Assembly: GCF_003334815.1 (NCBI RefSeq)
Contig: NZ_QOWO01000002.1
Source of the DNA: Escherichia coli
GTDB lineage: Bacteria > Pseudomonadota > Gammaproteobacteria > Enterobacterales > Enterobacteriaceae
DNA length: 64,000 nt
Direction: 5' to 3' (one strand)
In this document: positions 63,666 to 64,000 of the stretch, piece after piece
Layout of the letters: each line of letters begins with the position of its first letter
Position numbering within the stretch: the stretch's first letter is position 1
Translations under genes and position numbers: made by a program
The notes under the pieces: model-generated
Told to the model about the DNA's origin: nothing
The model's input: only the letters and a program-made list of their open reading frames with translations
The model's database searches: none

Positions 63666-63675
63666 AGCGGCATTT

Positions 63676-64000
63676 TGATCCTACCCACGTAATATGGACA
63701 CAGGCCTAAGCGAGGTTCTTGTTTTCAAATTGTTCCGGACTGAGGCCGCCACACCAACTGTGCCGCCGCCACCGATTGTAATCACATTCGATATAATTAA
63801 ACACCGTTGCCCGCATTATTTCCCGGCTGATAAAGTGTTCTCCATGGATACATTCCACTTTCAGCGAATGAAAGAAGCTTTCCACGCAGGCATTATCGTA
63901 GCAGCAACCTTTTGCGCTCATACTTCCACGCAGATTATGCCGCTTCAGTTGCGCCTGATAATCTGCTGAACAGTACTGGCCTCCACGGTCCGTGTGAACG
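63676..64000 (-). mobile_element. IS3 insertion sequence, terminal part (continues beyond window end)
   Basis: Terminal inverted repeat TGATCCTACCCACGTAATATGGACACAGGCC begins at 63676, 11 bp after the dgcT stop; internal sequence encodes the InsF C-terminus on the minus strand. Confidence 0.85.
63706..64000 (-). CDS. insF: IS3 transposase OrfB (InsF), C-terminal part
   Basis: Minus-strand frame ends ...[25 protein letters not shown] at 63706; the frame is open to the window edge. Confidence 0.8.

Follow-up and report, generated by a model that had tools for sequence, protein, structure and literature searches.

Introduction

Elements of the IS3 family transpose by a copy-out-paste-in mechanism in which the donor copy is kept. 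A single insertion sequence whose two flanks do not match is the classic outcome either of recombination between two copies or of an adjacent deletion mediated by transposase. The IS150-linked rbs deletions of the long-term evolution experiment are an example, for which Cooper et al. in 2001 reportedly proposed recombination between two copies. In these deletions an IS3-family element is retained and the DNA next to it disappears up to a new endpoint, leaving one copy with unmatched flanks, and endpoints that differ from lineage to lineage are anchored on the same IS end. The locus described here, where an IS3 element adjoins the diguanylate cyclase gene dgcT (ycdT) of Escherichia coli, resembles the IS150 case in both respects. 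It differs in that the event appears to be ancient and natural, would have comprised ~31.7 kb, and was apparently succeeded by trimming on both sides.

The presence of the IS3 copy called IS3D beside ycdT is already known, having been part of K-12 annotation for decades and being described in the literature (PMC5635171, PMC4951805). IS3D adjoins ycdT (PMC5635171), and ymdE is foreshortened by IS3 throughout phylogroup A (Goldstone et al. 2016, PMC4951805). In strain EDL933 the gene vmpA/pdeT (Z1528) lies immediately downstream of ycdT, and Richter et al. 2014 described pdeT as 'inserted' there (PMC4287979); vmpA is carried by O-island 47 (OI-47) (PMC4076661). At the OI-47 locus of O157:H7, dgcT is followed by an EAL gene, and full-length ymdE and ycdU are present, whereas genomes of the type studied here have one IS3 in place of the whole interval. 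The interval between dgcT and serX has also been described as variable (PMC5635171).

The ends of insertion sequences can act as promoters for neighbouring genes, as reported for IS3, a mobile promoter at argE (Charlier 1982), and for IS1, which in strain 55989 is situated upstream of pgaA (Richter 2014). The right end of the IS3 described here has the published outward −35/−10-like motifs; unlike the ends in these systems, it faces the 3′ end of a convergent gene and not a promoter-less gene.

Results

The junction of dgcT and IS3

The DNA analysed here, referred to below as the window, is a stretch of 64,000 nucleotides from E. coli (NCBI RefSeq assembly GCF_003334815.1, contig NZ_QOWO01000002.1) that corresponds to the hya-app-gfc-tor-rut-put-efe-pga-dgcT stretch of this species. 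The features at its right-hand end are listed in Table 1.

Table 1. Features around the dgcT-IS3 junction, in window coordinates
Feature	Position	Strand	Description
dgcT (ycdT)	62307..63665	+	452 aa; membrane-anchored GGDEF diguanylate cyclase; open reading frame, and RefSeq annotation as dgcT
Left-edge remnant of the variable dgcT-serX segment	63629..63675	+	47 bp; in the O157:H7 arrangement, not in the B2-type
Spacer AGCGGCATTT	63666..63675	.	10 nt between dgcT stop and IS3 end; left breakpoint flank (...TTT, then IS3)
IS3 right part (K-12 copy 'IS3D')	63676..64000	-	First 325 bp of the 1258-bp IS3; window ends inside the element
IS3 right terminal inverted repeat (IRR)	63676..63715	-	Starts 5′-TGATC; imperfect match to IRL
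Last 50 bp of the IS3 right end	63676..63725	-	Reported damper of outward transcription (PMC12095673)
insF/orfB 3′ end (IS3 transposase)	63706..63999	-	C-terminal 97 codons + stop at 63708..63706
Second outward promoter candidate	63727..63757	-	TTGGTG-19 nt-CAATTT; Charlier et al. 1982, quoted in PMC12095673
Outward promoter-like signature	63775..63801	-	TTTAAT-15 nt-TACAAT; points antisense at dgcT; '3R(+)' in PMC12095673

The last long plus-strand frame in the window is that of dgcT, which ends with a TAA codon at 63663-63665. The GGDEF model TIGR00254 matched residues 280-443 of DgcT with a score of 156.9 bits (cutoff 37.4). No nucleotide differences from MG1655 ycdT (b1025) were found over the aligned stretch of dgcT, and the pgaB-pgaA-dgcT-IS3 stretch of the window showed zero differences from MG1655. 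The right inverted repeat of IS3, TGATCCTACCC..., begins at 63676, the 11th base past the dgcT stop codon. In MG1655 (NC_000913.3) dgcT ends at 1094234 and IS3D occupies 1094245-1095502 on the complementary strand, giving an identical 10-nt gap, and a 651-bp query spanning the junction matched MG1655 and many other genomes with 100% identity. Thus dgcT (plus strand) and insF (minus strand) are convergent, with the transposase gene reading toward dgcT. A first-pass annotation of the window had placed the IS3 terminal repeat at 63676 just past the dgcT stop codon, with the transposase directed toward dgcT and the element situated as in K-12; the position was borne out to the base, the orientation by the minus-strand OrfB frame, and the placement by the same position and sequence in MG1655.

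From 63676 onward the window reads TGATCCTACCCACGTAATATGGACAC..., and all 325 of the 325 IS3 positions that it contains are identical to the MG1655 IS3 at the same locus. Agreement of this extent cannot, judged by the alignment, be a matter of chance. The MG1655 copy at dgcT in turn matches IS3B, IS3C and IS3E at every one of its 1258 positions. The IRR (from 63676, TGATCCTACCCA...) pairs imperfectly with the IRL (TGATCTTACCCA...) over the first ~40 bases. The OrfB frame, read on the minus strand from 63999 to 63709, matched positions 279-369 of the 369 positions of NCBIfam model NF033516 (E = 4.6e-36); the score is under the cutoff for the full protein solely because the end of the window truncates OrfB. 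Sequence and position identify the feature as the right end of the chromosomal IS3 that K-12 annotation calls IS3D: IS3D of MG1655 (insF4 b1026, insE4 b1027) is the same element in the same orientation at the same junction.

As the window ends 325 bp into IS3, the completeness of the element, its far junction and the state of the target duplication were read from near-identical relatives. At this junction IS3 is full-length (1258 bp), with both inverted repeats and with orfA and orfB connected through a programmed -1 frameshift, in MG1655, KO11FL, STEC1590 and LR-03, the genome closest to the window. The first-pass annotation had proposed that the other IS3 end and the target duplication be sought in extended sequence. 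Read in these relatives, the element proved to be a whole IS3 and not a remnant; the duplication was not there.

The left side of the junction retains a short piece of a variable segment. Homology between the window and the dgcT gene of an O2:K2:H1 strain, which was taken as B2, ends at 63628; homology with O157:H7 extends as far as the IS3 junction. The 47 bp in between contain the last 11 codons of dgcT and its stop codon, followed by the 10-nt spacer. The O2:K2:H1 dgcT gene (L003 5596-5800) has a different and slightly longer C-terminal coding end, succeeded by a hairpin with a 9-bp stem before serX. One edge of the variable segment is therefore within the coding part of dgcT.

Distribution of the junction

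The dgcT-IS3 junction was found in 2285 of 5426 complete E. coli genomes (~42%), corresponding to 54% of the 4230 genomes that have the dgcT 3′ end. A longer query consisting of the dgcT end, the full IS3 and the truncated ymdE (ymdE′) was covered to at least 80% in 2298 genomes. Carriers of the junction include MG1655, C600, ATCC 8739, E. coli C, KO11FL (a W derivative), O103:H2 and many ETEC and STEC strains; we take the named strains, which are few, to represent phylogroups A and B1. The first-pass annotation had raised the case of IS3 occupying this site in most E. coli lineages, and many lineages do carry it. On this distribution IS3D is an old element that has become fixed and has been passed down to a very large share of the species; it is neither specific to K-12 nor recent.

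IS3 at the site of a probable 31.7-kb deletion

Transposition of IS3 would be expected to leave a 3-bp target duplication, as seen at other K-12 copies: IS3B is flanked by ATC/ATC and IS3E by GTC/GTC. In MG1655 and LR-03 the flanks of the element beside dgcT are ...GGCATTT-IS3-GTGCCTGG..., that is TTT versus GTG, and a 3-bp duplication was found in none of the full-length relatives with the same junction. The site is thus a rearrangement scar, and the membership of the element in IS3 is unaffected. Two further K-12 copies differ from these patterns. IS3C has an imperfect duplication (ATC/ACC). IS3A (NC_000913.3 315229-316483), which sits between the pseudogenes eaeH and ykgA, is end-truncated, with a different IRL tip and no duplication, and looks like another rearrangement scar.

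On the far side of IS3 in MG1655 and LR-03 is a 5′-truncated ymdE, whose annotation there is 'ACP S-malonyltransferase, missing N-terminus'; ycdU and the tRNA-Ser gene serX come next. In the window strain the element would be expected to run to ~64933 and to be followed by GTGCCTGGCACACGCG, in ymdE′, and then by ycdU and serX. Between ycdU and serX there are 75-bp repeats spaced 181 bp apart, as detected by BLAST; 'RtT sRNA'-like repeats beside serX number three in MG1655, four in KO11FL and one in STEC1590, with none annotated in LR-03.

Aligned to the O157:H7 strain Z1816, the flanks from MG1655 fall at L005 positions 39389 and 7649, with 31,739 bp between them. Reading away from dgcT, the first gene of the intervening DNA, 97 nt downstream of dgcT, encodes an EAL domain and is identified in the literature as vmpA/pdeT (PMC4287979, PMC4076661). 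A regulator gene with a frameshift comes next, then an operon for fimbriae, a pair of genes for a filamentous haemagglutinin and a ShlB-type transporter, and a fatty-acid/polyketide-like cluster that includes ABC transporter genes. The interval ends in the 5′ part of a full-length ymdE, beyond which lies ycdU. The intact dgcT-pdeT junction was covered in 386 of the 5426 genomes. Across strains the dgcT-serX interval ranges from nothing in B2-type genomes to 33 kb in O157:H7, and in others it holds phage genes. In the O2:K2:H1 strain and a second strain of the same arrangement, dgcT directly abuts serX.

The locus therefore combines the hallmarks of an IS-associated deletion scar, namely unmatched flanks, a truncated ymdE, and a missing interval that is present in O157:H7. 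The first-pass annotation had described IS3 as 'inserted' downstream of dgcT; the missing target duplication, and the 31.7 kb of O157:H7 DNA that the element replaces, speak against that description. The surviving remnant of ymdE, being truncated, speaks for the K-12-type arrangement as the derived state, produced by deletion. Taking the explanation as a whole, we consider it very probable that IS3 marks an old 31.7-kb deletion and not a recent simple insertion.

Variants of the junction

Three forms of the junction were distinguished. In KO11FL and 713 other genomes (W type) the left junction is identical to that of K-12, and the right junction is displaced 185 bp upstream within ymdE, reading IS3-GGCGGTTAAAGG, so that the flanks are TTT-IS3-GGC. 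A query for the K-12 right junction was matched in 2172 genomes, including the 714 of W type, which leaves ~1450 of K-12 type. STEC1590 has the flanks GAG-IS3-GGC, that is the right junction of the W type together with a left junction 16 bp deeper in dgcT. Its dgcT gene (L007 3990-4010) lacks the two final codons and terminates at the TGA within the TGATCC of the IS3 terminus. STEC1589 has the same form, judged by an identical hit profile. Between K-12 and W, IS3 shows one difference in 1258 positions and the flanks diverge by 0.45-0.6%.

Some genomes carry other insertion sequences at dgcT. In KO11FL (L008 1255-3990) the gene is broken by ISVsa5 (IS4-like), leaving a 5′ fragment and a 1125-bp GGDEF open reading frame, and IS1 lies inside or beside dgcT in other genomes.

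The shared left junction and the nested right endpoints fit one ancestral event followed by IS-anchored trimming, as far as can be read from the junctions. Repeated independent insertions at the site were considered and rejected, the position and orientation of the element being identical to the base in the K-12-type and W-type genomes. The same observation bears on two related ideas: that an already truncated IS3-ymdE′-ycdU segment was gained by homologous recombination, or that the site is an IS3 hotspot that was hit several times. The high variability of the dgcT-serX interval noted above, from nothing in B2 to 33 kb in O157:H7 and phage genes elsewhere (PMC5635171), is in keeping with such transfer or repeated hits, as is the existence of two types of right junction. 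A transferred segment would still need a deletion somewhere to account for the truncated ymdE, and the flanks diverge at ordinary intraspecies levels (0.4-0.6%). We know of no site specificity of IS3 that would repeat this junction, which counts against a hotspot. Given the base-identical left junction and orientation, we regard both ideas as distinctly unlikely, and favour a single ancestral deletion.

An intermediate that has IS3 at only one of the breakpoints and retains the island was sought with a chimeric 1200-nt query composed, in order, of the ymdE 5′ part, the IRR end of IS3, the IRL end of IS3 and the left edge of the island. In an intermediate with IS3 beside pdeT the junction would read GGGTAAGATCA joined to (TTT)TAGCGGGTGATTTTGG, and in one with the ymdE 5′ part beside the IRR it would read CGGTGTGAGCG(GTG) joined to TGATCCTACCC. 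Such an intermediate would have covered 75% of the query, and none was found in the 5426 genomes. Matches with 66% coverage corresponded to the right junction of the W type.

The window strain is a close relative of K-12

Comparison with MG1655 over ~23 kb showed six substitutions, three 1-bp indels and the absence of IS1D from the window. The 768-bp IS1D lies upstream of gfcA in MG1655; in the window its 9-bp target occurs once, at 19976-19984. An extra G at 50891 relative to K-12 keeps efeU in frame; the other two indels are 1-bp deletions. The closest complete genome found was that of LR-03, a human faecal isolate, with 21 substitutions and two 1-bp indels over 64 kb. The K-12 IS1D junction at gfcA was detected in at most 424 of the 5426 genomes; BLAST coverage, by which the spread was counted, is blind to a 1-bp indel such as the efeU frameshift. 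From these comparisons, IS1D and the efeU frameshift are lesions private to K-12 that are absent from the window strain, a close relative. By the same evidence the window comes from a very close natural relative of K-12, the host strain itself not being K-12.

The first-pass annotation had correctly observed that the IS1 and efeU markers of the window are unlike those of K-12, the window having neither IS1D nor the efeU frameshift. Its further suggestion, that the strain is a mosaic of K-12-like and non-K-12 features, is not sustained. The IS3 junction, IS1D and efeU markers differ in age and spread, and since they are nested by age a mosaic is not needed and a close relative suffices. The dgcT-IS3 junction is a marker of a large clade, and is not evidence of K-12 ancestry or of mosaicism.

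These data also bear on the idea that IS3 arrived 3′ of dgcT by a simple, fairly recent transposition in a strain that is part K-12 and part non-K-12. The exact match to K-12 in position and sequence, together with the absence of IS1D and of the efeU frameshift, could be read in that way. However, the junction is shared by 2285 of the 5426 genomes, including strains commonly assigned to A and B1; no full-length relative has the 3-bp duplication that other K-12 copies of IS3 have; and the far flank is a truncated gene, with 31.7 kb missing relative to O157:H7. The few differences from MG1655 over ~23 kb fit a close relative without the private mutations of K-12. We give the idea of a recent insertion in a mosaic strain almost no credence, and retain that of an inherited deletion scar.

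The window strain differs from the K-12 host of IS3D in the absence of IS1D, in its intact efeU, and in private mutations of etk and torA. The etk gene (12240-14420, minus strand) has three disabling changes relative to MG1655 and LR-03: a TGG to TGA change at 12512 and 1-bp deletions at 13053 and 13343. The 10 kb around etk are otherwise almost identical to both genomes. The three hits look like decay of, or selection against, Etk, or possibly a local assembly error. In torA (plus strand) a C-to-A change at 29255 converts the TAC codon at 29253-29255 to TAA, dividing the gene into open reading frames of 189 and 652 aa; torA is intact in LR-03. At 62096, in the divergent promoter region of pgaA and dgcT, the window has G and LR-03 has T, with no difference from MG1655 reported.

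Possible effects of IS3 on dgcT expression

No terminator-like site (GC-rich hairpin with a U-run) was found downstream of dgcT in positions 63300-64000 of the window, on the plus strand through the whole K-12 IS3, or in the dgcT-pdeT spacer of O157:H7. Since the island-intact O157:H7 relative also has no terminator-like site after dgcT, IS3 displaced no recognisable terminator. By prediction, RNA from the junction is not more stably folded than shuffled sequence (z = 0.13; z = -0.82 for the corresponding O157:H7 RNA); a hairpin was present only in the B2 arrangement, beside serX. An Rfam scan of positions 61700-64000 returned one sub-threshold chance match, to a snoRNA family.

The two outward promoter-like signatures in Table 1 lie 52-126 nt from the IS end. 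A consensus promoter scan at the junction gave two minus-strand sites in insF, with 1.0 expected, and neither corresponded to the published motifs. In the work of Fuqua and Wagner (2025, PMC12095673) a 150-bp IS3 right end was chosen for having no detectable promoter activity. Removal of its last 50 bp raised reporter output ~1.9-fold (PMC12095673), a result whose application to the window rests on the sequence match to IS3. The dampening was attributed to a probable pause site downstream of a rut-like stretch (PMC12095673). Expression of ycdT has been reported to be very weak (PMC4287979).

From the consensus scans and the plasmid reporter of an isolated IS end, IS3 is probably close to neutral for dgcT: it leaves the coding sequence untouched and displaced no recognisable terminator, and its outward motifs are reported to be inactive in their wild-type form. 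The first-pass annotation had suggested effects on termination or stability of the dgcT transcript, or outward promoter activity from the antisense side; for termination and antisense transcription the available evidence is weak or negative. The IS3 end could instead measurably alter dgcT expression through convergent transcription from the transposase promoter, antisense RNA over the dgcT 3′ end or a shifted transcript end, and dgcT transcripts might read through the element into ymdE′-ycdU, which is co-directional with dgcT. Such effects would be in line with the two outward signatures that point at dgcT and with the reported activity of IS3 as a mobile promoter (Charlier 1982, as cited above). 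Transcripts could conceivably read through in either direction, as the plus strand has no terminator-like site between the dgcT stop codon and the distal end of the IS. Against this, the wild-type 150-bp right end was inactive in the reporter and its last 50 bp dampen transcription (PMC12095673), the consensus scan was at chance level, the island-intact relative has no terminator-like site that IS3 could have displaced, and ycdT is very weakly expressed (PMC4287979). We consider a measurable effect on dgcT unlikely, and near neutrality remains the preferred reading.

Discussion

In the scheme that we propose, the single IS3 beside dgcT would stand where ~31.7 kb of the variable dgcT-serX island used to be. 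The deleted part of the island, OI-47-like in O157:H7, would have begun with the c-di-GMP phosphodiesterase gene pdeT/vmpA directly after dgcT, continued with fimbrial, two-partner-secretion and fatty-acid/polyketide-like genes, and ended within ymdE, so that only the 3′ part of ymdE and ycdU survived on the far side. Two IS3 copies in direct orientation may have been present at the two breakpoints; recombination between them would have produced one hybrid copy with unmatched flanks. A deletion of adjacent DNA mediated by transposase would be an alternative route. Because IS3-family elements leave the donor copy in place, recombination between two copies is the most likely route on our analysis; the data do not separate it from a transposase-mediated deletion. 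Later IS-anchored trimming would have taken the right junction 185 bp further into ymdE than in the W type, giving the K-12 form, and in a few strains would have moved the left junction 16 bp deeper, removing the last two codons of dgcT.

IS3 may also have been retained at exactly this junction in thousands of genomes because it became useful, either as a buffer separating dgcT from ycdU, whose pause and rut-like end would stop convergent transcription, or because read-through from dgcT would restrain the transposase. The K-12, W and STEC1590 endpoints might then record adjacent deletions driven by transposase. Adjacent deletion by transposase is not usually credited to copy-out-paste-in elements of the IS3 family. 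We think it highly improbable that usefulness accounts for the presence of the element.

The present analysis adds refinements and no new kind of system. These are the counts of the spread of the junction in 5426 genomes, the absence of a target duplication set against positive controls, the exact 31,739-bp interval that is missing relative to O157:H7, and the three junction types.

The larger consequence of the event would be the loss of the neighbouring phosphodiesterase gene together with the rest of the island. That K-12-type strains lack PdeT/VmpA and the remainder of the OI-47-like island is better explained by an IS3-linked loss than by a gain in EHEC. This reading matters for comparisons of the c-di-GMP networks of commensal and enterohaemorrhagic strains.
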